From Eledone cirrhosa (Eukaryota), in assembly GCA_964016885.1 (NCBI GenBank), contig OZ024742.1:173414001-173478000 (forward strand): a stretch of DNA of 64,000 bases. Direction: 5' to 3'. Shown in pieces: positions 2,663 to 57,484 of the stretch. Numbering within the stretch: the stretch's first letter is position 1; the number at the start of each line of letters is the position of its first letter. Position numbers and translations under genes: made by a program. The notes beneath the pieces were generated by a model, which was given only the letters and a program-made list of their open reading frames with translations, ran no database searches and was not told where the DNA came from.

Positions 2663-3003
2663 TGGAAAGAGATATAGATGAAGATATAGATATAGATATA
2701 CACGTATATACATATTTATAGAGGAAACCAGAAAAGGGAATCACAAAGAATAATGAAAGCATAGAAATATAGAAGGGAAGAAAGGCAATGTACAAGTAAT
2801 TTACTTTCCAAGACATTTCTTGTTATTTGTGAAAAATTAAAAGAAGGTCAGCAGGAAAATAATTGATTTCTTCAAAAACAGAATTGGATTAGAGGTTATG
2901 TTGGCAATGAGAAAAATTATGTGATTGAAGAGGAAGTAAAAGTGCACAACAACAACAACGACGACGACGGCGATGATAATAATAATAATAATGATAATAA
3001 TAA

Positions 3004-3137
3004 TTGTTTCTATATTAGGCACAAGGCCAGCAATTACCAGTACCTTACTGGTACTTTATTTTACCGACCCCGTCAGGATGAGGGGCAAAGTTAACCTCGG
3101 CGGGATTTGAACTCAGATCATAAAGGGACGTAACTCT
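3004..3137 (-). mobile_element. 5'-truncated tRNA-derived SINE with Meta-domain-like core
   Basis: Minus strand has B-box-like gagttcaaatcc and ccctcatcctgacggggtcggtaaaataaagtaccag. Flanked on both sides by (AAT)n. Related copies at 17940 and 61825. Confidence 0.8.
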
Positions 3138-3187: not shown

Positions 3188-5921
3188 GAGGAAACAACAG
3201 ACAAGAGAGAGCAGAGCCGTGGTGGAAGAAGCGACTGAGTGGGCAAATCGGGGAAATGAGAAATGACATAGGAAAGCTTGAGTCACTACTGAATGGGACA
3301 CTAAAAAACATAGGCACTAAAAATAGACTGGAAATAAAATACAAAACTAGGAGTAAAAAGCTAAATATTATCATAGAGGAATTGAAGCAACGCATTGTAG
3401 CAAAGAGTGCCAAAATCAGGCGATACGAGAACAGAGTCAGTCAGTATAAACAGAACCGCATGTTCGACAACAACCAGAAGATGCTGTTTGGACAGCTTGA
3501 GGGGAAAGAAAGAGGCACCGACTTGATCCCTGGGGCGGAACAAGCTAAAACATTCTGGAGAGGAATATGGGAGCAGGATGTTAGACACAATGCCCAGGCA
3601 GGGTGGATTGAGACAGTACAGAGGGAGATCGGTGAGCAGGCACAGCAACAGACTGATTTGAGTATCACAGTTGAAACTCTTAAGGGGCAAGCCAAAAAAC
3701 TAACCAACTGGAAATCACCAGGCCCAGATGGTGTGCAGGGGTATTGGATTAAACATTTAACATCCCTCCACCCGAAGCTGACGGCCATGTTCAATGACTA
3801 CTTGGTGTCGGGTGAGGTGCCAGAGTGGTTGACAAAAGGTACCACAGTTCTGATAATGAAAGACCGAATCAAGGGTAATGATGTTACCAACTATAGACCT
3901 ATCACATGTCTGCCCGTAATGTGGAAACTGTTGACGAGCATTGTGTCTGAGGAAATCTACCATCACCTCCACACAAACAACTTGTTGCCGGACGAACAGA
4001 AAGGATGCCGAAAGAAGTCACGTGGTACAAAGGACCAGTTGCTTATTGATAAGATGGTAATGGGGAATTGCAGGAGGAGACACACTGATCTTGCCATGGG
4101 ATGGATAGACTACAGAAAGGCATTTGACATGGTGCCTCATTCCTGGATCACCAAAAGCCTGGAGATCTTCAGGGTGGCAGATAACATCAGACAGTTGCTG
4201 GGCAGGAGTATGGGGTCCTGGGAGACAGAGTTGACATCAACTGGTGTATCCTTGGGAAGCGTGAAGATCAAGAGAGGTATCTTCCAGGGAGATAGCCTGT
4301 CCCCTCTGTTGTTTGTCCTTGCCCTGATGCCCTTGACCATTATGCTGCGAAAAGTGAGAGCAGGATACAAGTTGGGAAGGGGAGAGCTTACCATCAATCA
4401 CCTCCTCTTCATGGACGATCTTAAGCTCTTCGGGAAAAGTGAGAAGGAGTTGGATGTGCTTGTTGACACTGTCCGTATTTTCAGCAGTGATATATGTATG
4501 CAGTTTGGTATTGGTAAATGTGGAGTCATTGTGATGAGGAGGGGTAGGTTGAGCAGAAGTAACGGGATCCAGATACCAACAGGTGAGATGATAAAGGAAA
4601 TTGACTCTGAGGAAGGATACAAGTATTTGGGCGTTCTGGAGGCTGATGGCATAAAGAACAAAAAAATGAAGGAATTGTTAAGAACTGAATACATTCGGAG
4701 AGTAAGGAGCGTATTGAAGTCACATCTGAACAGCAGAAATGCCATAAGCGCAGTAAATTCCCGAGCTGTGTCTATTATTAGGTACAGTGCGGGAATTCTG
4801 AGATGGAATGTTGCTGAACAAAAAGAAATGGATAGGAAGACTAGGAAGCTATTGACTATCTACAACATGTTCCACAAGAGGAGTGATGTCGATAGACTCT
4901 ACCTAAGGAGATCTGAGGGTGGAAGAGGTCTTATCAGCATAGAGGACTGTGTTCAGATGGAGAAAAACAACCTATACAAATACGTGACCTATAGTAAGGA
5001 GCCAATGCTCAGAGCTGTACTGAAGGAGGGGACAGTAGGCCAGGGGATACCCAAGGAGGAAATAACATCAAGGAGGAAGAGCAGCCTTAAGGGAAAATCC
5101 CTTCATAGTACCTTCTTTGAGAAAACTGAATTTAGAGATCCACAGACATGGAACTGGTTGAGAAGAGGAGACCTCAAAAAGGCTACAGAAGGAATGCTAA
5201 TGGCTGCGCAGGAGCAGGCCCTCAAAACGAAGTGGTTGAAGCACCATATCTACAAGGAGGAGGCTAGCCCACTGTGCAGGATCTGTGGAGAGAGAGAGGA
5301 GACTGTGGCTCACATTGTGTCCGAGTGTAAACACCTAGCCCAGACCCACTATAAGGGCTGGAGACACGATGTGATGGGCAGGGTGATCCACTGGCACCTG
5401 TGCAAAGTAAACAATCTACCACATTCTGAGAAATGGTATGAGCATAGGCCAGAGGCGGTGATGGAGAACAGTCAGGTGAAGGTGCTGTGGGATTTTAGGA
5501 TACAGACGGACAAAAAACTGGAACACAATAGACCTGACCTGGTGGTTGTGGACAAAGAAAAAAGATCGTGCCTGATTGTGGATGTGGCCTGCCCGTTCGA
5601 CACGAGAGTGCAAGAGAAGGAGAGGGAGAAAATTAACCGATACCAGGACCTAAAGTGGGAGGTGAAAAGGATTTGGAACTGCCATGAAGTCAAAGTGATC
5701 CCGATTGTCATAGGCGCACTGGGGACTATCTCCAAAGGTTTCCAGGGATGGTTAAAGAAAATCGGCCCCTTCACGCTTTTTGGAACGCTTCAAAAGGCAT
5801 GCTTGCTTGGAACGGCAAGAACCCTCCGATACGTCCTGAATATCTGAGGCTGCAGGTAGTGGCTTGATATTCAATCCAACGGACTTTCCAGTTAACCAAC
5901 ATCAATGACTGAGATTCAAGG
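3188..5921 (+). mobile_element. R4/Dong-like RLE non-LTR retrotransposon, family A, 5'-truncated but uninterrupted
   Basis: (AAT)n on both flanks. About 75-nt 3'UTR shared with copies at 14410 and 26635. Confidence 0.92.
3256..5847 (+). CDS. Reverse transcriptase + CCHC + restriction-like endonuclease (863 aa; frame open from 3190)
   Basis: WKSPGPDG, NYRPITCL, IFQGDSLSP, FMDD, CRICGEREETVAHIVSEC, RHD, RPDLVVVDK...IVDVACPFD..K. The upstream in-frame EPWWKKRL motif shows it is 5'-truncated. Confidence 0.95.
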   Translation: MRNDIGKLESLLNGTLKNIGTKNRLEIKYKTRSKKLNIIIEELKQRIVAKSAKIRRYENRVSQYKQNRMFDNNQKMLFGQLEGKERGTDLIPGAEQAKTFWRGIWEQDVRHNAQAGWIETVQREIGEQAQQQTDLSITVETLKGQAKKLTNWKSPGPDGVQGYWIKHLTSLHPKLTAMFNDYLVSGEVPEWLTKGTTVLIMKDRIKGNDVTNYRPITCLPVMWKLLTSIVSEEIYHHLHTNNLLPDEQKGCRKKSRGTKDQLLIDKMVMGNCRRRHTDLAMGWIDYRKAFDMVPHSWITKSLEIFRVADNIRQLLGRSMGSWETELTSTGVSLGSVKIKRGIFQGDSLSPLLFVLALMPLTIMLRKVRAGYKLGRGELTINHLLFMDDLKLFGKSEKELDVLVDTVRIFSSDICMQFGIGKCGVIVMRRGRLSRSNGIQIPTGEMIKEIDSEEGYKYLGVLEADGIKNKKMKELLRTEYIRRVRSVLKSHLNSRNAISAVNSRAVSIIRYSAGILRWNVAEQKEMDRKTRKLLTIYNMFHKRSDVDRLYLRRSEGGRGLISIEDCVQMEKNNLYKYVTYSKEPMLRAVLKEGTVGQGIPKEEITSRRKSSLKGKSLHSTFFEKTEFRDPQTWNWLRRGDLKKATEGMLMAAQEQALKTKWLKHHIYKEEASPLCRICGEREETVAHIVSECKHLAQTHYKGWRHDVMGRVIHWHLCKVNNLPHSEKWYEHRPEAVMENSQVKVLWDFRIQTDKKLEHNRPDLVVVDKEKRSCLIVDVACPFDTRVQEKEREKINRYQDLKWEVKRIWNCHEVKVIPIVIGALGTISKGFQGWLKKIGPFTLFGTLQKACLLGTARTLRYVLNI

Positions 5922-15665: not shown

Positions 15666-16693
15666 TAATGACAACAATAGTAAGAGTAATAATAAAGGAA
15701 CAACCAAATAATGTTAATAAACATAGCAAGTGTGTCAGGAAACAATAATAAGAGGATCTGGCGGCTTGCCAGATGTTTATTGTTTGCGAAGGAAACCATC
15801 GTAATATATTTTATTAATGTCAAGCGTAGAATCATTATTCGTGTAAGTTTTATTTTTTCCCATAAGAAGTTGGAGAAAAATTAGACAGGGAGAGAATTCA
15901 ACACTAAGCATATTTCATTGAGCTTTAGACCGCTTCCAACGGAACATCGTTTGGCAGTCGTTAGGTAAATAATAATAATAAAAACAAAAACAATAATAAC
16001 AACAAAAACAGCAACCGTTTAAAATGGGAAATGTAATTCACATAAGGGAAGTAACACTTCTATTGATTATATACCGCAGTAGTCTGGAGATATTTCAAAA
16101 ATATGGGTGTTAGAATATAACCTGTACTTCACTAATGCTGTTGTACAGATATATTAACTAACTTCCTGAAGTCCCAGAAGCATTCTATTAATGTCAAAAT
16201 GCCTATGCATTATTCATATATATCTGTAATACATATTTTCTTCCATTCATATATATTTATTCATTTATTTATTCATGTTTTAATAAAATAAATATATACA
16301 TTATTAATTTCTAAGCATATATATATATTTAATAATAATAATAATAATAAAATGTGGAGAGGAGGCACACGAGTTAGGATATATATATATATATGAAAAC
16401 AGTGAGAAAGAAACGATTATGAGGAAGAAATAATTTTTTTTTTTCCTTTTTTTGGTGTCTCTCTCTCTCTTTTTTCTGGGTTAGAAAATGATTAAAACGA
16501 AATATTTTACTTTGTGTGAAGTGTTAAGGTATTAGTTGATTTATTTATTATTTAACAATGGCATTTATTTATCTATTTATCTATTTAATTATTGTCTATT
16601 ACCGGTTTCTGCATTTATATGCATTATCAAATGATAGTGAAATATATTAGTGTGGTGTCGCACATGTTAAACAGAAGGTGCAGAAAGAATAAT

Positions 16694-16923
16694 GTTATAT
16701 ACAAACAAGGTTTAAGAAGTGAAAAGAAAAAAAAAAAGGAAAAAAAAAGGAAAAAGAAAAGTGCATAATGTGGAACGTAAAAAGTCAATGTGGAAGAAAA
16801 GTTAATGTTATTTGACTGTGCTTGTAAATAACATTAACATTTCTTCCACATTGACTTTTTACGTTCCACATTATGCACGGTTTCTTTTTTCTTTTCACTT
16901 CTTAAACCTTGTTTGTATATAAC
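16694..16923. repeat. Long inverted repeat (about 100-bp arms, 12-nt loop)
   Basis: gttatatacaaacaaggtttaagaagtgaaaag...gtgcataatgtggaacgtaaaaagtcaatgtggaagaaa-gttaatgttattt pairs with its reverse complement at 16826-16923. Confidence 0.93.
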
Positions 16924-17129
16924 TAAATTAATTGTATATAACTAAATTAATTTTTCGTATTAGTTTTTCATATATATCGTACGAGCATTTATGTAGTTTG
17001 CATTATAATTTATGTATTGTAGCAGTACTCATATATATCGTATTAGTATTCATTTTCGGGATTCTGAATTAATATTTCGTATTAGTTTCGGGACTCTGAA
17101 TTATTATTTCGTATTATCTTTTTTTAGTG

Positions 17130-17731
17130 TTTTGGCCCCCTACTGGCTGACCTGTCATTGTAAGATAGATTTGGCCGATTACTACTAACTCATTAAATTC
17201 TTTCACTACAATCTCGTATTTAGTATTCCGTCCCACCTATTAAACTTGTCTATAGCTTAGCAGTACCCGTGAGAGATTTGATGTTTGTGGAAGGGGAATA
17301 GTAACAAGAAAATGTGTTTTTTTAAATATTTTTAATATTTTTTATATTTTCCTATATATTTATTCCATATAGATTTACTTATTGTGTCGACATCCTCCCC
17401 CCTCCCCTTCGCTAATATACATCTTTCGACCTCTTATCCTTAGATTGTGCTGTAGTTTTCACTTTCAACGCTCGACTAGGTTTCCTCCACTTCCTCTCCC
17501 TCTTGCTTCTACTGGCAACTTCAGCTACCCCTACCTTCCACAAAATGTCACGATAGAATCATGTGTCTCAACAACAAACTTTTGACCAATCCTTGTGACA
17601 ATCAATTTTACCATATATGGAATTACCCCCTGAGAAGTTCGGCTATTCATTTACCATGATAAAAAATGTTCTTTTAGTCCAGAATTAGCCGTCGAAACGG
17701 CTTCAGATCAGACGCCGGGGTCCTACTCGTT

Positions 17732-17733
<2 letters not shown>
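17130..17733 (+). mobile_element. Non-coding HHR-terminated element, related to 40590-41165
   Basis: Shared blocks taagatagaWttggccga..tactaact and acaac..tt..accaat..tgacaa...ccc(t)tgaRaagttcggctatt...tttagtccagaa.tag..gtcgaaacggct. Confidence 0.75.
17625..17721 (+). ncRNA. Hammerhead ribozyme-like motif, decayed, long helix II
   Basis: acccc-CTGAGAA-g..cggcta/tagccg..c-GAAA-cggc...ggggt. Cleavage triplet is mutated in this copy. Confidence 0.55.
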
Positions 17734-17768
<35 letters not shown>

Positions 17769-17771
<3 letters not shown>

Positions 17772-17832
17772 ACAGTTTGGATCTAGCTGTCGAAATGGCT
17801 GGAGCTCAGCCGTCGGGATCATGACTCCTTTC
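17769..17832 (+). ncRNA. 3' half of the same HHR family, embedded in (TA)n
   Basis: c-GAAA-tggctg-gagct-cagccg-TC-gggatc, giving an intact helix III and GUC triplet. Confidence 0.6.
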
Positions 17833-17844
17833 ATATACACACAT

Positions 17845-17882
<38 letters not shown>

Positions 17883-17937
17883 GCATATATGTAATAATAA
17901 TAATAACAATAATAACAACAACAATAATAATAATAAA

Positions 17938-18117
17938 TGTTTCTACTTTTGGCACAAGACCAGCAAATTAACCAGTATATTACTGGTACTTTATTTTATC
18001 GACCCCGTAAGGCTGAAAGGCAAAGTTAACTTCGGCGTATTTGAACTCAGAATGGTAAGGGCTATGCGTCAAGGCATGGCGTCCGACCCTCTAACGATAC
18101 TGTCAATCCACCGCCCA
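17938..18117 (-). mobile_element. tRNA-derived SINE (same family as 3004-3137)
   Basis: Minus strand: ggcggtggattgacag (A-box-like), gagttcaaatac (B-box-like), gcctttcagccttacggggtcgataaaataaagtaccag. (AAT)n flanks. Confidence 0.82.
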
Positions 18118-40204: not shown

Positions 40205-40512
40205 GGTGGATGGGAAACGGGGCTAGGATGAGACATGGGGAAGAAGACAAAGAGGAAAAGAAAAGAAAAGAGATACATCTACCTAAGTAATCTGTGGTTT
40301 CCCCTAACTTATTCGGCAAGTAGGGGGGTATCAGCCCTTGTCTACCCACCCGGGTTATTATGGGCTTTGAGGGCGAGGTAAGTCCTAGAAAATCTGTGAT
40401 ACCCCCCTACTTGCCGAATAAGTTAGGAGAAACCCAACTTACTTAGGTATCTCTTTTCTTTTCCTCTTTGTCTTAATCTTCCCCCTGTCTTATTCTATCA
40501 CTTCCTTCCACC
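40205..40512. repeat. Long inverted repeat (about 120-bp arms, about 63-nt loop)
   Basis: ctaacttattcggcaagtaggggggtatca / tgatacccccctacttgccgaataagttag is perfect near the loop. Distal arms (aagacaaagaggaaaagaaaag / cttttcttttcctctttgtctt) are less perfect. Confidence 0.93.
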
Positions 40513-40589
40513 CCTATTTTCTTCCTTGTCTGCCTTTCCCCTTCGCCTACCCGATGCAGCCCATCGGGCCTCTGTAGCATCAGTTCCAC

Positions 40590-41165
40590 CACCCTTGTAA
40601 TTTTAAGATAGAATTGGCCGAAGACGTTTTACTAACTATTTATAGCAGACGTGTTAAACCCCTTTAATTCTGTATCAGTTCTGGTACTACTCATTTTCTA
40701 CAAGTTGTTTTCTATTCTCAACAAATTAACCTGTAATTGTAAGATAGCATTGTGATTTTTTTTATTAATATCTCACTATCTAATTTTATATATCTTTTTA
40801 TTTATTTCTATTATCTTTTATTGTCTTCTACTCTCATTTGATCAATCTATTCTATAACCTCCCTCCTCCACTTCTTACACTATCCTTAGAATCTGCTGTA
40901 TACATATCACTTTCAACGTTTGACCACTCCACTCACTCCACTATCGTTCTACAGGCAAGTTCAGCCACCCCACCTCCCACCAAATGCCATGATAGACTTA
41001 TTTGTGTTTACAACAACTTTTAACCAATCTTCTTGACAACTACACTCTTCCCATATAAGAAAGTACCCCCTTGAAAAGTTCGGCTATTTTTCACCATTCT
41101 AATTTAGTCCAGAAATAGTGGTCGAAACGGCTTGAGCTCTGCCATCGGGGTCATACATTTTCCTA
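40590..41165 (+). mobile_element. Non-coding HHR-terminated element, related to 17130-17733
   Basis: Shared 5' block and shared 3' about 150 nt. Confidence 0.75.
41065..41151 (+). ncRNA. Hammerhead ribozyme-like motif, U3-A8 core
   Basis: accccc-TTGAAAA-gttcggctattt...aaatagtggtc-GAAA-cggc-ttgagctct-gcca-TC-ggggt. Confidence 0.62.
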
Positions 41166-41507
41166 TTTCCCACTCTACTACCCTAAGTATTGAGTACTCT
41201 GGTGCGTTATGGTCCATCTGGTTCCTTACACAATTCCTTTGATATATATATTATTATTATTATTATTATTAGGACAATAGGATTGATGATTTAACATCTG
41301 TATACAACAACTAAAACGGTACGCGATGGGGACCACCCACAGCCCCGGCGGAAAGAATGAAGAAGGCGTTTCCCCGGGGACGGCAAGGGAGACGCGCTGG
41401 AAAAACATTCTTAGTAATAACCCCATGCTTGACCGGCAATCGCTCTGTATAATCAGTTCCTGATTATTACTAAGAATTCTATAAGAATCAAACATTCATG
41501 ATTTTTC

Positions 41508-41589
41508 AGCAGACAGGAGGAGTAGTTAGCTTTGATAAGCATAAAAAAATGCGAAACAGAGCTCTGTCAGCTTTATCTCCCCTGTTTGC
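41508..41589 (+). ncRNA. Type I hammerhead ribozyme, U3-A8 core, extended helix I
   Basis: gcagacaggagg..agct-TTGATAA-gcat(aaaaaa)atgc-GAAA-cagagctctg-TC-agct..ctcccctgtttgc. Confidence 0.85.
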
Positions 41590-41962
41590 AGAAAATTAAA
41601 GTAAGTGCGACTGTCTAAAACAATAGCATAAGTTCTTCGAAATGCTTTTAATTAAGCATACCGTGTATTGCAAAATACACTATATATACATTCATATATA
41701 TATATATATATCGCTATTTCAGAGCACAGATTCTAATATATATATATATATATATATAGTATTAGTTATACTATTTATGGTTATGTAAACACAAAACCTT
41801 AAGCAGTTGTAAGTATTTTACACACACCCTAAATAGTGGTAGGCAGTAATGTATTACTACCTTATTACCAGTAAGTTAAGTAGCTCAATGTAAAAACATC
41901 ACATGATTTACAGAGCAGTTATATGAAATATAAGAATCAAAGAACTGTTCAAAACATTATTG

Positions 41963-42009
41963 TGCTTACAGCTGTTTCCTCCAAACCGAGGTTTGGATTC
42001 TTCGGAGCA
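41963..42009 (-). ncRNA. Minimal HHR (C4 variant) in inverted pLTR
   Basis: Reverse complement of 46693-46739. Confidence 0.72.
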
Positions 42010-42789
42010 ATTTATTAATGCATGGACAGTTATATGACCTCCTTTTCAGCCGAGAGACATACCAATACATATTCAAACATTGATACATATTCAAACATTG
42101 TGGGTCAACATTCATTACAAAATTTAGAGTGGCAGTACACACTTCGAGATTACATTTATATTAATAGGTACAATCAAAAATCAAAGATATAGGTTAAAGT
42201 ACAACATGAAGATAAGTGGTTATATAGTGCAAATGTTATATGTGTGGCACGCATGTGCGTCTTGTTTATATAGTGTGGCAGAGAGATATGTGTGGTAGAG
42301 GCACTTAGGTAGGTAAATAAGAGTGTTAGGTTGGTAGATCTGGTGGCAAAGTCTTTATATGATTGATGTAGTCTGTGTGTGGAGAAATATTATAAGCATT
42401 AAAGATAGTGCAAGCATTAAAAGTGTTATAAGTATTGGAGATGCACAACGCAGGGATGTCAAGTAATTCATGTACTTCGGCATTTTCATGGTCAAGGGAG
42501 TGTATATTTCGATTATATGCCTTTCGATTATATGCCTTTCACATAATGTTTTGAACAGTTCTTTGATTCTTATATTTCATATAACTGCTCTGTAAATCAT
42601 CTGATGTTTTTACATTGAGCTACTTAACTTACTGGTAATAAGGTAGTAATACATTACTGCCTACCACTATTTAGGGTGTGTGTAAAATACTTACAACTGC
42701 TTAAGGTTTTGTGTTTACATAACCATAAATAGTATAACTAATACTATTAACTGCTCCATATCGTTGAGCTGACATATAATATTGCCAAT

Positions 42790-45249
42790 ATGCTAATCAA
42801 AGACCAACTCCCCATGTCAACCAAGAACATACCAATACCATCCAGGAATACATATGAGAAATTGCTGATCAACAGTGTAAATTCATTTATCAATAGAGTG
42901 AGATGGAGGACATTCCATTATGATAGAAACAAATCTAACAACTTGAATAATACTAACAAGTTTGACTCCTTCGGCTTTAAAACCTTTAAAAGCCCCCCTC
43001 ATAACACTCTACTTAACTCCTTTGAAAATGACCTAGTTAAACTAGTTAAGAACATTAAATACAATAAGCACCATATTAGAAGCAACACCTTCTTAAACAA
43101 ACTTAACACTTCTATTAGTGGATTCAAAACTAGTAATAACATTATTGTACACGCAGATAAAACTAATAACATATACAGCCTAGATTATATTACTTATAGA
43201 AAGTTTATATATAATGAACTACATAAAAGCTACAAAAAAACCACCTTGAAAAACTTAGAAGATATTAATGTAGAGGGTTATAATATAGTGTCTAAACTAG
43301 GACTACAGAGGCATACACAACCTTTCACTCCGAACCCCCCTAGATTCTCTCTGAAGGACCATAAGGAGAACTTCATCAGCAACCCCACGATAAGACTTAT
43401 CTGCCCTTCCAAGTCCGACATTGGTATTATCAGCAAGAAGATTTTGGATAAAATCATCCCACAAATTAAACACAAGATACACCTTAAACAATGGGGAAAT
43501 ACGGGTGAAGTAATTGAATGGTTTAAGGATATCAAGAATAATAAGAACAAAAAATTTATTCAATTTGATATCAATTCATACTACACCTCTATTTCCCCTA
43601 TCCTATTAAATAAGGCACTTATCATGGCCATGACTAATAGCGACCTGACTAGAGCCCAGGTTGATGTCATCCTTGCGGCCCGTAAAACCATAATCACCTT
43701 CGAGGACCAACTATGGACACGCAAGGATACGCACAACAACTTCGACATAACCATGGGATCTAGTGACTCGGCGCAGGTCACTGATTTGGTCGGCCTATAC
43801 CTCCTCAATGAAATCCATAAGGACCTCCCTTACCTCAACGGTGGTTTGTACCGCGATGATGCACTTCTACTCATAGAATATAAAAAATTTAATATAGAAA
43901 GAACTAGAAAACAACTGCATAAGACATTCAAAAACTTTAACCTTAGTATCACCATGGACAAAAACACTAAAAATGTTAACTTCCTAGACGCCACACTATA
44001 CCTAGACTCAAAAATATATACACCTTTCCATAAGCCTAATGAGAAACTTATTTACGTAGATACCAAGTCTAATCACCCTAGATCAATATTAAACTCTATC
44101 TCTAAGGGGGTGTCCAATAGAATCTCTAGTCTGTCCTATGACGCAAACATATTTAGCAAAAACTCACAATATTACAATCAAGCATTAGCTAGCTCCGGCC
44201 ATAATATAGAAATAGAGTTCCTACCTAAGAAAACACATAGCTACAACATCATCTCGCACAACATGTCCATGAGGAAATCTAATAATAGGAATAGCAACCA
44301 CAAGTACACCAAAGCGGAGGGTGCCACCAGAAGTAACCATTACCATGGAAACTACTGTGAGGCCTTAGGAGGAAGCAACACACCAAACACTAAAAGCAAA
44401 AATAGAAGAAGAAATAATACATTTTTCAACCCTCCTTTCAACCTAAATGTCTCCACCAACATACCTAGGGCTTTCTTCTCACTACTAGATAAAAACTTCC
44501 CTCTAGGACACAAGTACCACAACCTCTTAAACAAAAACACCATTAAAATCTCATACTCTACGACGCCTAACTTAGCATACCACATAGCTAGCAGCAATAA
44601 TAGTAAAATTAGTTCTTACTTCCAACAAACAAAATCACAACGGGATGCAAACCCTCTAAATACCACTGTAGCAAGCAACAATAGCAACGGCAGTAACAAT
44701 AGAAATAACACTAGTATAAGTAATAACACCAGGGTTGTCAACCTGAACACCCAAAATCCTATATCCACCACACAGACTTCCGCATTGCATTATAACCAGC
44801 GGACTAACGCACAGAATAATTGTAACTGTAGAGCTAATAGAACCTGCCATTTAGATAAAAAATGCCTAACCAAGGATGTCATATACTCATGCACAGTCAC
44901 GACTAATAACTCTTCAGAAACCTATGTAGGCTCCACTTCTAACTGCTTCAAAATTAGATATAACTCGCACATCCACTCGTTCAAAAAGCACAGCCTAGCC
45001 AACTCCACCTCACTTTCTAGCTACATACACTATCTAAAATCTAAAAATAAACCATACACACTCAAATGGGAAGTGATAGGCAGCGCGACCTCGTACAAAC
45101 CACCTAATAAATTCTGTAACCTCTGTATACTAGAGACACACAATATTATCTTCTCCAACCGTAACCTACTTAACAAAAAATCTGAGGTGTTTGCAACTTG
45201 CCAGCACCGCCTCAGACATTCCTTCCAAAACTTTAAGCCCTATATATAG
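42790..45249 (+). CDS. Penelope-like RT + C-terminal GIY-YIG endonuclease (819 aa), Naiad-like
   Basis: ADKT, RLICPSKSDIG, QFDINSYY, TMGS, YRDD, NFLD, HKP..SNHP, FNPPF, CNCR...CLTKDVIY...YVGST..FKIRY..H, CNLC..E. Confidence 0.93.
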   Translation: MLIKDQLPMSTKNIPIPSRNTYEKLLINSVNSFINRVRWRTFHYDRNKSNNLNNTNKFDSFGFKTFKSPPHNTLLNSFENDLVKLVKNIKYNKHHIRSNTFLNKLNTSISGFKTSNNIIVHADKTNNIYSLDYITYRKFIYNELHKSYKKTTLKNLEDINVEGYNIVSKLGLQRHTQPFTPNPPRFSLKDHKENFISNPTIRLICPSKSDIGIISKKILDKIIPQIKHKIHLKQWGNTGEVIEWFKDIKNNKNKKFIQFDINSYYTSISPILLNKALIMAMTNSDLTRAQVDVILAARKTIITFEDQLWTRKDTHNNFDITMGSSDSAQVTDLVGLYLLNEIHKDLPYLNGGLYRDDALLLIEYKKFNIERTRKQLHKTFKNFNLSITMDKNTKNVNFLDATLYLDSKIYTPFHKPNEKLIYVDTKSNHPRSILNSISKGVSNRISSLSYDANIFSKNSQYYNQALASSGHNIEIEFLPKKTHSYNIISHNMSMRKSNNRNSNHKYTKAEGATRSNHYHGNYCEALGGSNTPNTKSKNRRRNNTFFNPPFNLNVSTNIPRAFFSLLDKNFPLGHKYHNLLNKNTIKISYSTTPNLAYHIASSNNSKISSYFQQTKSQRDANPLNTTVASNNSNGSNNRNNTSISNNTRVVNLNTQNPISTTQTSALHYNQRTNAQNNCNCRANRTCHLDKKCLTKDVIYSCTVTTNNSSETYVGSTSNCFKIRYNSHIHSFKKHSLANSTSLSSYIHYLKSKNKPYTLKWEVIGSATSYKPPNKFCNLCILETHNIIFSNRNLLNKKSEVFATCQHRLRHSFQNFKPYI

Positions 45250-46692
45250 CAATGTCGGACTGGAACCTAACACCACATCTAGCATCAGACACCAGAGACA
45301 CACCCTATACTACATACCCAACACTAGCTGATCCATTATAACACAAACAACGACATCCCTCTGGAACCCTTCGCAGGGAAAATACCCATTTATACCTCTA
45401 CGGCAGGTGTGACAACATCCACCCACCTGGACGGCACTACACCGCTCTAAGGGTAATTTGAGCATGAATTGATCGGTTGGATGGTGTTGGGCAGAGGAAA
45501 CACCTTCCTTAGACAGATGTAAAATGATTTAATCGAGTAGCGCTGTTGACCAGTAGGACCGGGCTGCTGAGCGCAGTGAGTGAATGCAATGCAACTGCCG
45601 TGCGGGTTGTACGTATATGGATGATCTGACGGTCAGAGAGGGGTCGCGAGGACTGCGGATTGACCTTTGGACTGCCTGGGGACGATTATCTTTCGACATC
45701 CAATGTAGCAAGCGATGACCCAGATCTTACCAGAGATCATTGGGTCCTGAAGCAATCCTGCAATCACCGCGCCTGGTCATATGAGCAGACTACAACCACA
45801 GAGACCATTAATTTAGAATCCTCGCTCATCATCTATAATTTCCATTTGTAGCACCTTAAGATGGGTTAATCCACCTTAATAATAATATGATCACCTTCAG
45901 CATAATTTAGTTAAACTACTCTATAGTTAGTACACTTTATGCTTTAAAAGTCTCTCTTGGAAGGTGCACCTCACCATAGAATTTAGGGTCCATATTGGGA
46001 CACATTTTAATGGCTGGATATAGAAACCCCAGAGTTACCTCCCCGCATGCATTAACTCCCCTTAGCCACACACACACTTCCGGTATTCAATGGCGTCTCT
46101 CGAAACGTAACAACCTCCTGTATCGAACTAAAGAACACCAGACTACGATCTCTAACTGGATTGTCGTGGATTATGTGAAAGGCATATAATCGAAATATAC
46201 ACTCCCTTGACCATGAAAATGCCGAAGTACATGAATTACTTGACATCCCTGCGTTGTGCATCTCCAATACTTATAACACTTTTAATGCTTGCACTATCTT
46301 TAATGCTTATAATATTTCTCCACACACAGACTACATCAATCATATAAAGACTTTGCCACCAGATCTACCAACCTAACACTCTTATTTACCTACCTAAGTG
46401 CCTCTACCACACATATCTCTCTGCCACACTATATAAACAAGACGCACATGCGTGCCACACATATAACATTTGCACTATATAACCACTTATCTTCATGTTG
46501 TACTTTAACCTATATCTTTGATTTTTGATTGTACCTATTAATATAAATGTAATCTCGAAGTGTGTACTGCCACTCTAAATTTTGTAATGAATGTTGACCC
46601 ACAATGTTTGAATATGTATCAATGTTTGAATATGTATTGGTATGTCTCTCGGCTGAAAAGGAGGTCATATAACTGTCCATGCATTAATAAAT

Positions 46693-46739
46693 TGCTCCGA
46701 AGAATCCAAACCTCGGTTTGGAGGAAACAGCTGTAAGCA
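46693..46739 (+). ncRNA. Minimal HHR (C4 variant) with palindromic helix III
   Basis: tgct-CCGAAGA-a-tccaaacc-tc-ggtttgga-g-GAAA-cagctg-TA-agca. Confidence 0.75.
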
Positions 46740-46788
46740 CAATAATGTTTTGAACAGTTCTTTGATTCTTATATTTCATATATTTCAT

Positions 46789-46845
<57 letters not shown>

Positions 46846-48648: not shown

Positions 48649-49858
<1,210 letters not shown>

Positions 49859-50127
49859 TCTGTGGTAATGAAGAATTCTTGTTGGATAGTTTATCAATAT
49901 AGACGTGAGGGAAAGTCCCTCGTCTATTTACCTTTTTCGTAAGTGAGAGGATAGGTACTCGATAGAATTATAACAAATGAGTCGGTGTGTGTGTAGACAA
50001 GATAATAACCACAACGAGAGTTCTATTCAACAATGTAAATAAGGATGATGTTTATTTTGTCTATTATGTGTTTGTTATATTACAAATGAAACAACATACC
50101 AATATAGACGTAATCAGTTGAAATGAA

Positions 50128-52147
50128 GGCAACGTATTACAATTGTCGTGGGGCACCAATGTAATGCCCACGTCTGGGTCACCAATGTGACGGGACCAGT
50201 AAAGTGAAATCAGTTATGAGCCAGTGCTCGGCCAACTCTAACCTTGTGGCTTCGGAATAGGAGTTCAGTGTATTGACATCTGTGTGATCTCGTGGTCCAA
50301 AGGCTGTCTGCTGTTTCCTATCTCCGTGGCTTGTCTGAGAAAGTAATACTGCTGCTTACTTAAATAGTGTTCTCAACCAGCGGGAGACAACTAGGCCTGG
50401 TCCATTATCCGACAGGTGTGGGGGGGGGTGTAAGGCGTCTTACCATAGCGTCCGTGTCCAGATGTGCCTGCTTAAGCCTGTCTATTGTAACTGTTTCCCT
50501 GGACCCTTTAATATCTAGAGTGAAATGCTTAGCCGAGCGCGCTAAGACCCACTAAGGTCCAGTGTAAGGCTGTGTGAGCTGGGGCTTCACAGAATCTTTC
50601 CTTACAAAGACATGCGTCCACGAGGCAACATCCCTCGGAACAGCAGTCTTGACAGTTTGTTTTCTAGTGTCCATTGGCGGCAAATCCTGGAAATAGGAGC
50701 GCAAACGGGACACGTAGGAAGCGTGATCTTGGGCATCAAGATCGATAGGGGCAAGCATTTGCCCGGGCAACGTCAGAGGGGCACCGTACAGTACTTCGGC
50801 CGGTGAAAATCCAAAGTCGACCTTCACCGTTGACCGAATCCCTAATAGCACAATAGGGAGGTACTCGCTCCAACGCGCCGAGTCCATTCAGGCCATTAAA
50901 GACGCCTTCAGTTGACGGTGAAAACGCTCCACCATACCATTCGAAGCGGGATTGTACGCCGTAGTTCTGATGCGTTTAGCACCAATTAATTTTGACATTT
51001 CGAGGAAAAGGCTCGACTCGAAATGTCGTCCACGGTCGGTAGTTACTGTGGATGGAACTCCATAACGAGAGATCCATCCAGACACAAGAGCACGCGCTGT
51101 TGTTTCAGCGGTGATGTTTTTCAAGGGGATGGATTCAGGCCATCTCGAAAAACGATCAACTATAGTCAGCAGATAAGAATAACCGTCGCTGACAGGCCAA
51201 GATCCCACTATATCAATGTGAAGGTGCGAAAAACGCGCATCTGGGTTAGTAAAGGTACCAAGGGGAGCCTTGACGTGTCGATGGACCTTTGATTTCTGTC
51301 AAACGACGCAGCAACGGCATCAAGCAGCAATTTCACGCCTCATATTTGGCCAGAAAAATCTAGCTGATATGAGCTTTACTGTGGCAGAATATCCTGGATG
51401 TGAGAAACTATGTAATGCCAGAAACACGGTCCGACGATGATTCGCGGGAACGAAGGGCCTAGGCACGTCCAAAGAGACGTCGCAGAGAATTTGGCCAACT
51501 GCAGTCGACAGAGGCAAGTATTTCATCTCGCAATTCGCAAACTCAGGCGATGTAACATCGCTCAAGGGGAGGCTGATCCGCAGCCAAACGAGTCAGATCT
51601 ATGTCAGAGAGTGACGAGATCGCTGTCACGGGTAAGTGGGACACAGGATCGGCCGCTGTATTCAGTGAACCCGGAATGTGTTGGATATCGTTCGTATATT
51701 GCCAGATGAAATCAAGGTGCCTCGTCTCTCTGGGCGAGTATTTATCAGCCTTCGCTCTCAACGCAAAAGTTAATGGTTTGTGGTCAGTGAGGATAGTAAA
51801 TAGTCTACCCCCTAGCATATGTGAAAAGTGTTTCACGGCAACGTATTACAATTGTCGTGGGGCACCAATGTAACGCCCACGTCTGGGTCACCAATGTGAC
51901 GGGACCAGTAAAGTGAAATCAGTTATGAGCCAGTGCTCGGCCAACTCTAACCTTGTGGCTTCGGCATAGGAGTTCAGTGTATTGACATCTGTGTGATCTC
52001 GTGGTCCAAAGGCTGTCTGATGTTTGCTGTCTCCGTGGCTTGTCTGAGAAAGTAATACTGCTGAGTACTTAAATAGTTTTCTCAACCGGAGGGAGACAAC
52101 TAGGCCTGGTCCATTATCCGACAGCGGGCGTAAGGCGTCTTACTACA
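50128..52147 (-). mobile_element. Internally deleted Ty3/Gypsy LTR retrotransposon derivative
   Basis: LTRs at 51895-52147 and 50186-50447 (TGTAG...TCACA). PBS TGGTGACCCAGACGTG, tRNA-Trp-like. Only RNase H end and integrase are retained. Confidence 0.85.
50450..51836 (-). pseudogene. Gypsy RNase H C-terminus + integrase fragments
   Basis: TDHKPL; H..SHPG..C..VC; VDRFSRWPE, TDRG, NGMVERFHRQLK; PYTGP. Confidence 0.92.
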
Positions 52148-52149
52148 TA

Positions 52150-52509
52150 TCGTATTCGAAACGCCCGGCGACTAACTCACTCAATATGCAAATTAGGCTG
52201 CTCAGCCGTTAGTATGAATAAGGAAAGTATATACTTTCAAACGTTCAATCAACTGACAGGAAGGTATACGGTGTTGATGACAGCTAATAAGCTAGAAACT
52301 AATTCATCATTCCTTTGTCAGTGTTGAACAAAATGGTAACGATGGTTGTCGAACACTGTACGGGTTAATTCGGTCTGTTTGTTTACAAAGAAACCGAGCA
52401 TTATAATAAATGTTCGGGAAACCCATACGTACAAATATATATGTGTGTATCTATGTATATATACATACTACTGTACGTCTGTATACATATATGTATGTAC
52501 GTATACATA

Positions 52510-52515
<6 letters not shown>
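52150..52515 (+). mobile_element. Third copy of the small HHR element (HHR 52252-52322, core decayed to TTGATGA)
   Basis: Matches 49456-49800. Confidence 0.85.
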
Positions 52516-52552
<37 letters not shown>

Positions 52553-52606
52553 GTCGGAAAGTAAGAAATCGGAGAATAGACCGTTAAAATATGTTTATTT
52601 AAAACA

Positions 52607-52647
52607 GCATCTACGTACGTTTCGCCCAGTTGGATTTCTCAAGGGCA
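52607..52647 (-). ncRNA. Minimal HHR, U3-A8 core (inverted copy)
   Basis: Minus strand: gccc-TTGAGAA-atccaactgggc-GAAA-cgtacg-TA-gatgc. Confidence 0.7.
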
Positions 52648-53705
52648 TAAATAATCAAAAGTGTTGCTTACATTGCTCGGAAAGAGTTTTTGGGGTTAAA
52701 TCCACGTCAAGGTTCATTGCTCGCAAAAATAGCTTGTTTTGATTGTGCAGTAGGTCAAGGGAGGTAACTATGGCCGGTGTTAGGGCAGTCTTTCCCGGAC
52801 AAATTTGTTTTAACTGCTACGAGATGAGGTTGCAACCTTACCATTGTCGATACGCATGTAATCAACCCTTATTTTGAGAGTTTTTTTTGCCGCATCTGTT
52901 TGTCTGAGTCGTTTGAGGCTGGGTCTGGTATGTTTCCTGGGTGTTATTTTGCAGCGCCTGCCCACCGGGGTGTTAAGACTTGTTGAAGGGAGATCCGGTG
53001 CACGGTTTCACTCCTCATTCTTAACCCATCTGAAGAAGGATATTTTTAAGCGATGTGTAAAACTTATCGCTGTTTCAGCTCTGCTGTTGATGAGCTCTGG
53101 GGGTGCAGTTATGATGTGGTAGAGCTCCATGAGGCAAAGATTGCATTTCCTCTTGAAGTTCTACGGTGCAGCCCTGCCGACAATCTCCCAGTGCGTGGAG
53201 AAGCTGACGTTTAAGACCTTTAGTGATGTGATGTAGTCCGCGAGCGAAGTGGAGTGCCTTAGTTTTCTATTTTTGAAAGAGTGGAGATGTGTTCGAAAAC
53301 TAATTTTGAACGGGCCGGAGGTAGCCCCTATATAATGTTTAACGCTATTGTGGCTAGTAATAGTGCATCTATATATAACCCTATCAGTGAAGCAGTATCC
53401 TCTAAGGGGGCAGCGTCCTCTGTCGCGGCAGTTGCAATTTCTGTCGCGGTTCCGTCTATTTCCCACGGTAAGGCTATCATTGTTGCTGCCTACGTTGTTA
53501 CCTACGCTACCGCAGCTGTTTTTAGTACCATTACAACCCACAGCACGCGGGGTGGTGCGATTATTATGCCGCACGTCATGTCCTGCATGTTCCCCGGTCA
53601 TTTCGCGGTTATGCTGGTTGCGTCTGCGGATGCAATGAACCTTGACGTGGATTTAACCCCAAACACACATTGCGAGCAATGTAAGGAACACTTTTGATTA
53701 CTTAT

Positions 53706-53745
53706 GCCCTTGAGAAGCCCAACTGGGCGAAATGTACGTACGTGC
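53706..53745 (+). ncRNA. Minimal HHR, U3-A8 core (5' pLTR)
   Basis: gccc-TTGAGAA-gccca/tgggc-GAAA-tgtacg-TA-cgtgc. Confidence 0.72.
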
Positions 53746-56700
53746 TGTTTTAAATAAACATGTTCTAACGGTCTATTCTCCAATTTCTTACTTCTCCCAC
53801 GTGCTTACGCTCTGCTAACTCTCTAGCCCACTAAATATTAACACTTCGAATATTTAATACTGCCGGCACTAGTATCGAGCACCTTCGGCATACGCTACTT
53901 GGCAAATAACTATATGTATCACCTATCCTCCCCTTTTTATTTTTCTCTCTCTCGATACGTAAATACTGTATTACTGTGCTCCTTTTGTAGAGCATCTCAC
54001 CTTATTTGCCATTATGTTGGAGAACCAGCCGTTACCCATGTCTCTCAAGTGTATCCCCTTACCCAGCAGAAAAACCTACCTTAAACTGCTTATAAACGCT
54101 ACTAATTCGTTTATACGGAGAGTCAGATGGAAGGCCTACCACCTGGATAAGAACACCCGTAACCTTCCTGAACCCAAAGAGAGGTATGGCTTCAAAACAT
54201 ACTGAAACCCACCGCACGAGACCTTAGTGGACTCCTTTGAAGAGGACCTGCTGAAAATGATCAGACACGTTAGGTTCAGAAAGAAACACCAACGCAGCAA
54301 TCCATTCTTAACGTCCCTTGATACACTAATAACTAAGATCAAGAATGAACCGCACTTCTCCGTCACCTCCGACAAAACCAAAAAGCTGTACAAGATGGAC
54401 GCGAGTAAGTATAACAAATTCATCTATAAGAAACTACACAAATACTACAAAAAGACACCCTCTAGTACCCTAAATGACATAAATAGAGTAGGGAAGGATA
54501 TAGTCACCAGCTTAGAAATAGAAAAGTAAACTAACCCGTACGTTCCCCTGACGCCTAAATTCTCTCTTAAGGATTACAAATATGACTTTAATGAAAGCCC
54601 CTCTATTAGACTAATATGCCCCTCTACATCAGATATAGGTAAGATTAGTAAAGTGATCCTCGACAGAGTACTACTGGAGCTTAATAGAAAGGCTAAGGTC
54701 TACCTGTGGGGCAACACCGACCAGGTCATAAATTGGTTCACCGAGTTGCCGGATAAAGCCACCCTGAAGTTCATCCAGTTTGATATAGATAGTTACTACG
54801 CCTCTATCTCCCCCAAACTCTTAAATAAGGCACTTATCTTAGCTAAATCTAACACTAGGCTCACTAAAAAGAAATAGACATAATTCTAGCGGCAGGTAGA
54901 ACCATTATCCAGTTCGAAGGCTCCCACTGGACCAGAACGAACCGTCCTGATAACTTCGATGTCACGATGGGGTCCAGTGACTCAGCGCAAGCAACTGACC
55001 TGGTCGGACATACTTCCTACATAAGCTTAGGCAAGAGATACCGGCCCTACCAGGAGGTGTATATAGGGACGACGCCCTGTTTACCGTTAGCAACCATAAC
55101 CCCCTTAGGATAGAGAACCTTAAAAAACATATACACAGGTTCTTCAAGTCATACGGCCTATCCGTAACTATGGACCTCAACCACAGGGTGGTCAACTTCC
55201 TGGGCGTGACCCTGGAGTTGAGTAAGGGCTTATACACGCCATACGGTAAGCCTGGAGAGTGCCTCTCTTATATTAATTATGCCTCCAACCACCCTAAGCA
55301 GACTCTCAAATCCATAGTCTATAGTATCTCACATAGAATCGCTAGGCTATCCGCCAATGAGGATATATTCAACCAAGCGGCAGCGTGTTATAATAGGGCC
55401 TTGATAAACGCCGGCTTTAACGGAGGAATTTCCTACATCCCTAACGCTAGCTCTAGAAACCACTCCCCTCATAAAATGACGTTATAGTAAGCCATACCTA
55501 TAACCGATCACGCGGCGACCTCGTTGAAGTCGGATATAATAGAATAGATAACCGCACTAAAGATCACGACCCCGGCGACGGTGACCACTGCAGATTACTC
55601 GAACTATTCCCCTATTACAAAACCAACAAAGGCGACGGCCTACTACCAACGCCTTCCAACCAACATAATTCCTGTACATAAACATGGAAGACGTAGGAAG
55701 AGTGCAACCGAGCATAAAGTGAAAGGGGCACCGAACGGGCGACTGCGCATTAACACACATAAGAACGGTCACCTAGATGGAACCACCCGTAGAAAAAGTA
55801 CAAGGAAACGTAATCGCCACCGTAACGTCCTATGGTTCCACCCCCCCTACTCTCGGAGTGTGGTCTCCAACATACCCCGGATGTTCTTCGAAGCCTTAGA
55901 GAAGAAGATCCCGCCCAACCATAGGTATAGAAAAATTCTTAATAGGAACAATATAAACATATCATTCTCTACTACTCCTAACCTAGCAGACATCATAGGA
56001 ACAACGAACCACAGTAACATCACCAAGACACAGCACCTCGACACAGAGGCACCTACACCTGATAATAACTATATCGGCCTAAACAACTCCCTGGCAGCAT
56101 CCAATAGTGTTGGCAAAGGCATCCGCAGACGCAACCAGCATATCCGCTAAATGACTGGGGAACATGCAGGACATGACGTGCGGAATAACAATCGCACCAC
56201 CCCGCGTGCTGTGGGTTGTAATGGTGCTAACGACAACTGCGGTAGCGTAGGTATCAACGTAGGTAGCAACAATGATAGCCTTACCGTGGGAAATAGACGG
56301 AACCGCGACAGAAATTGCAACTGCCGCGACAGAGGACGCTGCCCCCTTAGAGGATACTGCTTCACTGATAGGGTTATATATAGATGCACTATTACTAGCC
56401 ACAATAGCGTTAAATATTATATAGAAGTTACCTCCGGCCCATTAAAAATTAGGTTTCGAACACATCTCCACTCTTTCACTAATAGAAAACTAAGACACTC
56501 CACTTCGCGCGCGGACTACCTCACATCACTAAAGGACTTAAACATCAGCTTCTCCACGCACTGGGAGATTGTCGGCAGGGCTGCACCGTAGAACTTCAAG
56601 AGGAAATGTGATCTTTGCCTCATGGAGTTCTACTACATCATAACTGCACCTTACGAACTCATCAACAGCAGAGCTGAAACAGCGATAAGTTGAACACATC

Positions 56701-57115
56701 GCTTAAAATTGTCCTTCTTCAGATAGGGTAAGGATGAGGACTGAAACCGTGCACCGGATCTCCCTGCAACAAATCTTAACACCCCGGAGGGCAGGCGCTG
56801 CAAAATAACACCCAGGAAACAATCCTTGCATACCAGACCCAGCCTCAAACGACTCAGATAAACAGATGCGGCAAAAAAAAACTCTCAAAATAAGCGTTGA
56901 TTACATGCGTATCGACAATGGTAAGGTTGTAAGCTCCTCTCGTAGCAGATTAAAAAAAGTTCTCCGGGAAAGACTGCCCTAACACCGGCCAGAGTTACCT
57001 CCCTTGAACTGCTGCAAAATCAAAACAAGCTATTTTTGCGAGCAATGAACATTGACGTGGATTTAACCCCAAACACTCTTTTCGAGCTATGTAAGGAACA
57101 CTTGTGATTATTTAT

Positions 57116-57155
57116 GCCCTTGAGAAGCCCAACTGGGGGAAACGTACGTAGGTGC
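57116..57155 (+). ncRNA. Minimal HHR, U3-A8 core (3' pLTR)
   Basis: gccc-TTGAGAA-gcccaactgggg-GAAA-cgtacg-TA-ggtgc. Confidence 0.72.
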
Positions 57156-57484
57156 TGTTTTAAATAAACATGTTTTAACGGTCTATTCTCCGATGTCTTA
57201 CTTTCCCACGTGCTTACGCTCTGCTAACTCTCTAGCCCACTAAATATTAACACTTCGAATATTTAATACTCCCGGCACTAGAATCGAGCACCTTTGGCAT
57301 ACGCTACTTGGCAAATAACTATATGTATCACCTATCCTCCCCTTTTTATTTTTCTCTCTCTCTCGATACGTAAATACTGTATATATATGTATATATATAT
57401 ATTAGAAAATACCATAGCTTTCACCGTATTTTTCAAATAAAAAAATTTTAGTCTGAAAATGGGGTTTAGAACCCTCAGATAAAT

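Follow-up and report, generated by a model that had tools for sequence, protein, structure and literature searches.

Opposed hammerhead-bearing pieces around a long hairpin in a repeat-rich stretch of DNA: a possible fold-back scar between PLE 3′ ends

The window, by which we mean the whole 64-kb stretch of DNA analysed here, is a pile of repeats rich in (TA)n and (AAT)n. LINE copies with RT occur on the plus strand (e.g., 3190-5847) and, as APE-RT copies with ORF1, on the minus strand (e.g., 20.6-26.5 kb); we take these RT-bearing LINEs to be R4/RTE-like and Tx1/L1-like. From 4488 to 40208, plus-strand RT and minus-strand APE-RT copies alternate, several of each, and they often meet at (AAT)n, which suggests repeated targeting of that microsatellite. 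A 144-nt repeat (17909-18051 and 2976-3117, 84.7% identical) follows (AAT)n and is presumably SINE-like, and direct repeats of 326 nt (50128-50451 and 51837-52153, 92.6% identical) around 1.4 kb are likely the remnant of an LTR retroelement.

Two ORF-bearing PLEs lie in the same window. PLE1 (41756-46844) has an open frame of 832 aa, and PLE2 (52551-57382) is broken and in pieces 40-65% identical to PLE1. Judging by its RT and C-terminal nuclease motifs and its architecture, PLE1 appears to be a PLE; a Pfam search gave no match for its protein, 308 relatives were obtained at E ≤ 0.001 among 8000 scored candidates, and the only informative name among the 120 relatives listed was an Argonauta protein (39%). 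This hit and the mix of repeats (compare PMC13282606) make a cephalopod the likely host. A comparison of the PLE protein with viral contigs returned no relative. Each element carries an inverted copy of its 5′ part (606 nt and 100% identical in PLE1, 1093 nt and 92.5% identical in PLE2), with an inversion loop of 582 or 911 nt across the two, and because the 606-nt copy is 100% identical, PLE1 is likely a very recent insertion. Both also have a 3′ hammerhead followed by (TA)n; that of PLE2 (57120-57150) is minimal, with a U3:A8 core. The hammerhead core of PLE1 is CCGAAGA, with C at position 4, and is retained in a diverged copy (78%) at 2388-2426. About 1.6 kb separate the end of the PLE1 ORF from the (TA)n, and positions 1324-2552 hold an ORF-less 1.2-kb copy of the PLE1 UTR (77.8% identical).

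The locus under study, and its second copy further downstream, comprise the following features.

16396-16693, minus strand: piece A, likely the 3′ end of a PLE (a pLTR piece), ending at the (TA)n at 16379-16394
16600-16630, minus strand: minimal type I hammerhead of piece A, from the descriptor scan
16694-16813: left hairpin arm, expanded in A-tracts and, on the minus strand, contiguous with piece A
16826-16923: right hairpin arm, an inverted copy of the left arm by alignment and folding energy
16913-16950, plus strand: perfect 19-bp tandem duplication spanning the end of the right arm
16951-17150, plus strand: mini-repeat region with three exact copies of TCGTATTAG and periods of 21 and 32
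17153-17190, plus strand: shared block matching 40596-40637, where detectable B1/B2 homology starts
17153-17733, plus strand: piece B1, ORF-less, about 580 nt, homologous to 40596-41166
17615-17736, plus strand: decayed full-length type I hammerhead of B1, with helix I extended to the end of the element
17734-17770: (TA)n directly 3′ of B1, likely the target microsatellite
17784-17832, plus strand: stub, a 5′-truncated B-type piece with the 3′ strand of helix II, GAAA, helix III and GUC
40205-40515: hairpin of copy 2, with a left arm that begins at the ATG of ORF2 in a Tx1/L1-type LINE on the minus strand
40596-41166, plus strand: piece B2, a diverged relative of B1, with its core at 41071-41077 and the triplet AUC at 41144-41146

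A preliminary description of this DNA had reported, in copy 1, a hairpin with arms of about 100 bp, and this hairpin is real: 99 of 102 paired columns match, the loop has 12 nt (16814-16825), and the folding energy is -134.1 kcal/mol, compared with -37.0 ± 4.4 kcal/mol in 30 shuffles. The local alignment of the left arm with the reverse-complemented right arm consists of 99 matches, 3 mismatches and 25 gap columns, and the gap columns are mostly A-tract expansion. Because the arms differ in substitutions and indels, an assembly artefact was ruled out as the source of the hairpin. The 19-bp duplication at the end of the right arm is likely a junction scar, and a comparable 16-bp tandem duplication occurs at the inversion junction of PLE1 (about 42510-42541). 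The mini-repeats that had been noted were also recovered, since TCGTATTAG occurs exactly three times (16955, 17038 and 17077; chance mean 0.39, with at least three copies in 3 of 100 shuffles), and the copies lie within local tandem duplications with periods of 19, 21 and 32.

Piece B1 begins at the block that had been described as conserved at about 17150-17190, which we delimit as 17153-17190 (78.6% identical to 40596-40637, E = 0.002). The 3′ part of B1 (17435-17736) is 73.6% identical to that of B2 (40881-41166) over 307 nt (E = 2e-41, 0 of 200 shuffles), and the middle part is weakly similar, with an alignment score of 75 against a maximum of 66 in 200 shuffles. Upstream of the shared block, the two copies have only a 23-nt match in common (2 of 200 shuffles). 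The layout had been said to recur at 40205-41165, and this holds for the hairpin, the block and the 3′ part, whereas the mini-repeats of copy 1 are absent from copy 2 (40205-41166). These are the two long copies of B in the window; detectable homology begins in both at the common block, and their lengths are 580 and 571 nt. No ORF of at least 150 aa occurs within 16694-17733, tblastn of the window's PLE and ORF1 proteins against the B region gave no match, and no PLE coding remnant was found in or beside B1 or B2. Moreover, B is not significantly similar to the UTRs of the two PLEs in the window (as good a score was found in 41, 70, 59 and 10 of 200 shuffles), and neither a parent ORF of B nor an RT-GIY-YIG ORF linked to B was found within the 64 kb.

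The (TA)n that follows B1 is itself followed, as had been observed, by a second 3′ half of a hammerhead with an intact GUC. This stub (77% identical to 17686-17771) lacks the core strand, all 8 of 8 pairs of helix III are retained at 17784-17822, and (CA)/(TA)n comes after it. B1, the stub and piece A all terminate at (TA)n, and the end of B2 is followed by about 75 more nt and then by a short (TA)/(TTA) run. Long direct terminal repeats were not found at the copy 1 locus. A candidate remainder of piece A downstream of B1 was rejected, because its score of 60 (0 of 200 shuffles) was due to microsatellites and the similarity disappeared once these were dropped (194 of 200 shuffles). A literature search, mainly of open-access sources outside Repbase and Dfam, yielded no description of the B family, and a motif search in viral contigs gave 0 matches. 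Five matches of a gapped motif in metagenome contigs (49-69% GC) were set aside as chance matches lacking core or helix context.

Both B1 and B2 can be folded as type I hammerheads in which helix I has 5 bp and extends distally to the end of the element; both have a G10.1-C11.1 pair and a near-palindromic helix III. In B1, helix I is formed by 17625-17629 and 17717-17721 around the core (17630-17636), helix II by 17640-17645 and 17686-17691, GAAA lies at 17694, the cleavage triplet is GCC (17714-17716), and the motif stops 17 nt before the (TA)n, which begins at 17734. The hammerhead near the 3′ end had been credited with a long helix II; the type I layout stands, but helix II has only 6 bp in B1 (9 of 10 bp in B2), and what is large is its loop, which is variable, loosely structured and 20-40 nt in length. 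The lesions of B1 are the triplet GCC instead of GUC, A15.1-C16.1, C3-A8 and one change in helix III. B2 has a core of the U3:A8 variant, UUGAAAAG, the triplet AUC and a C15.2-A16.2 mismatch. The core of B1 differs from the U3:A8 form by one lost base, which yields C3-A8, and the core of PLE2, UUGAGAAG, is the form that reconciles the cores of B1 and B2. The hammerhead fold of B1 has an energy of -16.7 kcal/mol compared with an MFE of -25.3 kcal/mol, and the gap to the MFE is 8.6 kcal/mol in B1 and 11.4 kcal/mol in B2. Because core changes and 15.1-16.1 mispairs are counted as disqualifying (PMC3088659), both ribozymes are predicted to be weak or dead, and that of B1 is likely dead. A composite ribozyme made of the 5′ half of B1 and the stub is not favoured; the partition function gave a probability of 0.00 for pairing of the B1 helix II strand with the stub.

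The Rfam hammerhead models gave no hit at the gathering score in the window and none at E ≤ 10 in 16500-18000. An earlier, first strict descriptor matched two sites in the window, neither of them at B. The strict type I descriptor used subsequently, which was drawn up after motifs had already been seen, matched 8 sites in the window, compared with a mean of 0.24 and a maximum of 2 in 25 shuffles. Four of the eight belong to the PLEs, one each in PLE1, in the inverted copy and the UTR copy of PLE1, and in PLE2, and a fifth is that of piece A; B1 and B2 fail this descriptor. The match at 47226-47176, which extends into (TA)n, is likely due to chance. Just downstream of copy 2, at 41532-41568 on the plus strand, there is a further U3:A8 hammerhead, in which helices I and II have 4 bp each, helix III is a 12-nt palindrome and the triplet is GUC. 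It is situated 114 nt before (TA)n in the manner of a PLE 3′ end, and its helix II is similar to that of piece A.

The minus-strand hammerhead of piece A (16630-16600) was overlooked in the preliminary description. It has a U3:A8 core, a perfect 5-bp helix II, a palindromic helix III, GUA and a weak helix I, and it lies 64 nt to the left of the left hairpin arm and 208 nt before the (TA)n. In local shuffles, a minus-strand match arose in 1 of 2000 and a match on either strand in 10 of 2000. Piece A has no other copy within the window and is not significantly similar to the window's PLE UTRs, to B or to C. The hairpin of copy 1 therefore sits between two ribozyme-bearing pieces, A and B1, that point in opposite directions, and their hammerhead motifs are about 1.0 kb apart. 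Since the minus-strand ribozyme-bearing piece runs from the left arm to about 16396, position 16694 is probably not the left boundary of a unit. The continuation of the left arm into a ribozyme piece of the other strand speaks against the proposal that the hairpin is a module of the element itself.

The hairpin of copy 2 has arms with 110 matches, 14 mismatches and 19 gap columns, and it had been described as unrelated in sequence to that of copy 1, with which our comparison agrees (15 of 200 shuffles score equally). Its GC content, together with the following 80 nt, is 41-57%, compared with 54% for the Tx1 element and 35% for the body of B2; the GC content of the copy 1 arms (25-29%) fits piece A and B (27% and 26%) equally. 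We are inclined to trace the arm DNA not to B but to the neighbour, which is piece A in copy 1 and, in copy 2, the region between the two ORFs of the Tx1 element. The left arm of copy 2 showed no significant similarity to the inter-ORF regions of the other Tx1 elements (48 and 35 of 200 shuffles), nor did its hairpin region in six comparisons with Tx1 5′ UTRs and the end of ORF1 (best 12 of 200). Between the copy 2 hairpin and the shared block lies a small GC-rich stem-loop (40544-40562), which has no counterpart in copy 1. Among the nine local inverted repeats listed, both of the tight, non-microsatellite long hairpins are situated just upstream of B. This position suggests that the insertion of B makes the two hairpins, and because both precede B, the link between hairpin and B is more than a coincidence to be explained by piece A.

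According to published work, U3:A8 cores occur in PLE ribozymes, which are for the most part solitary motifs "probably related to truncated PLEs", and some are paired on opposite strands 100-700 bp apart (PMC4209133). The U3:A8 variant is reported to be active in vitro (PMC3088659). PLE insertions are often 5′-truncated and partially tandem with an inverted 5′ copy, and some clades prefer (TA)n (PMC8557442); palindromes at head-to-head PLE junctions have been ascribed to self-priming (PMC3846280). Reverse transcription is initiated internally on the PLE RNA, ribozyme cleavage is dispensable for insertion in vitro, and the steps of integration that follow cDNA initiation are described there as not yet validated (PMC11167929). 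The telomeric Terminon (PMC6431247) serves as a contrast. Three short motifs that were looked for in one supplement file of PMC8557442 were absent from it.

Set against the pLTR and 3′-UTR fragments of EN+ PLEs (PMC4209133, PMC8557442, PMC3846280), the locus shares a type I hammerhead near the 3′ end, the U3:A8 variant, the G10.1-C11.1 pair, a palindromic or near-palindromic helix III, the (TA)n target, a partial tandem stub, an inverted 5′ junction and motifs on opposite strands. It differs from them in that their ribozymes are minimal, whereas that of B is full-length, with a long helix III, an extended helix I and a large loop II; in that the arms here measure 100-140 bp, whereas the palindromes in the PMC3846280 text have 18-38 bp; and in that the opposite-strand motifs are about 1.0 kb apart, beyond the range given in PMC4209133. 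PLE1 and PLE2 resemble the locus in having a 3′ hammerhead before (TA)n and inverted 5′ copies, PLE2 also in its U3:A8 core and PLE1 in the micro-duplication at its junction. However, neither has significant DNA similarity to A or B, their ribozymes are minimal with a short helix II, and their inversion loops far exceed the 12 nt of the copy 1 hairpin (582 and 911 nt). Judged by its sequence, the locus is of the PLE 3′-fragment kind in ribozyme type, (TA)n end and partial tandem plus inverted 5′ structure. The dependence on Penelope proposed in the preliminary description agrees with the window's ORF-bearing PLEs in these same features, and its option of a fold-back priming scar for the hairpin gains support from the PLE-like inverted 5′ junction.

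We think it somewhat probable that in this locus the 3′ pieces of two different PLEs are joined head to head, with the hairpin as a fold-back insertion scar, and likely that it consists of commonplace transposon remains and is not a new ribozyme element. Pieces without an ORF are nothing unusual here, because the window contains two ORF-bearing PLEs, 5′ inversions and an ORF-less 1.2-kb UTR copy, and since its sequence is unrelated between the copies, a fold-back scar is the best reading of the hairpin. According to this account, B1 would be the 3′ piece of a third PLE family. A PLE RT-GIY-YIG protein would nick (TA)n and start cDNA synthesis just past the ribozyme; synthesis would halt early, so that the ORF-less 3′ part of a long UTR or pLTR remains; the DNA 3′ end at the 5′ junction with piece A would snap back and copy about 100 nt of itself; and slippage during this snap-back would yield the 19-, 21- and 32-bp duplications. 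The ribozymes may have decayed afterwards, and a present-day function would not be required.

Several observations run against the join of two PLE 3′ pieces as we favour it. The common start block and the lengths of 580 and 571 nt suggest a unit of fixed length over random truncation, B has neither a parent ORF found in the window nor significant similarity to the UTRs of PLE1 and PLE2, and both tight long hairpins precede B. The comparisons of the copy 2 left arm with Tx1 were not significant, and GC content does not discriminate in copy 1. Helix I of piece A is weak, the descriptor postdates the first sight of motifs, and both the arm length and the spacing of the opposed motifs exceed the published values. 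It is possible, though on the whole unlikely, that B is an ORF-less, non-autonomous family of about 580 nt that a PLE protein mobilises in trans, in which case the hairpin would again be an insertion scar. Both copies have the same start block and a similar length, the extended helix I finishes at the end of the element in both, and neither has a PLE coding remnant in or beside it. Furthermore, such PLE derivatives have been described, namely MRC1-type elements of Chlamydomonas, which are ORF-less, PLE-dependent units resembling a PLE 3′ end (PMC8557442), and Xenopus retrozymes related to pLTRs (bioRxiv 10.64898/2026.07.22.740005). However, there are just two long copies, which are decayed and differ by 26%, the picture would be identical for a solo pLTR from an ORF-bearing family, and simple truncation has already made an ORF-less 1.2-kb piece in the window; a common start followed by about 580 nt fits a solo pLTR and a non-autonomous unit equally. 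Still more doubtful is a composite in which B is a non-autonomous, PLE-dependent unit of fixed length (about 580 nt) whose hammerhead is full-length and of the U3:A8 type, and in which each insertion would, as a rule, create at the 5′ junction an inverted duplication of 100-140 bp of the target's flank. If this were true, such flank-derived fold-backs would make snap-back synthesis visible in the second half of PLE integration, which has yet to be resolved, and would offer a genomic signature, open to counting, of the way in which PLE 5′ ends become joined. Retroelements would then also give rise to long hairpins built from the DNA of the host or of neighbouring elements.

Chance adjacency, in which hairpin 1 is purely an inverted 5′ copy of piece A itself, hairpin 2 is of separate origin and B lies next to them by accident in a (TA)n-rich hotspot, appears highly improbable. 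PLE1 and PLE2 each have an inverted, 3′-incomplete 5′ copy, and a junction at the end of the right arm is indicated by the 19-bp duplication, but two coincidences would be needed, given that each of the two long B copies comes after a tight long hairpin and the window has no further hairpins of that kind. We give hardly any credence to B as a classical animal retrozyme, whose tandem units would be cut by the hammerhead and circularised. The likeness to animal non-LTR retrozymes (PMC7229834; bioRxiv 10.64898/2026.07.22.740005) consists in the ORF-less structure, the type I hammerhead and the likely dependence on PLEs, and one may add that B has a full-length hammerhead, that the stub has a stable helix III and that this second, partial ribozyme lies about 100 nt downstream. 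Yet those retrozymes are tandem units of 170-400 nt with whole ribozymes, whereas B has one mutated ribozyme per 0.6-0.8 kb plus a 49-nt stub; with no tandem unit of that size, no complete second ribozyme, a stub devoid of the core strand and not predicted to pair with the B1 helix II strand, and decayed ribozymes, the label "retrozyme-like" of the preliminary description is not upheld. A plant LTR retrozyme was likewise rejected, as the topology is type I and not type III and long direct terminal repeats are lacking. Equally remote, in our view, is a hairpin selected as a dsRNA/siRNA or miRNA-like module carried by the element, which had been the other option offered for it. Transcription of the near-perfect arms of copy 1 would yield about 100 bp of dsRNA, but the two hairpins share no sequence, the arms of copy 2 contain 14 mismatches and several indels, and the Rfam miRNA matches are generic and 25-120 bits below the gathering scores. 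Small RNAs could arise as a by-product of the hairpin.

Under the head-to-head join that we favour, the locus contributes two further PLE ends that carry hammerheads, and in one of them the ribozyme is of the full-length U3:A8 kind; its import is modest. Inverted repeats also occur elsewhere in the window. Those at 48700-49860 and 52160-52540 are nested and enclose (TA)n, and at 49563-49593 they include a CUGAUGA motif that resembles a hammerhead. The UTR copy at 1324-2552 lies between two inverted sequences of about 125 nt (1210-1329 and 2742-2880; 75% identical, 0 of 200 shuffles), which represent either a MITE-like host or another inverted flank duplication.
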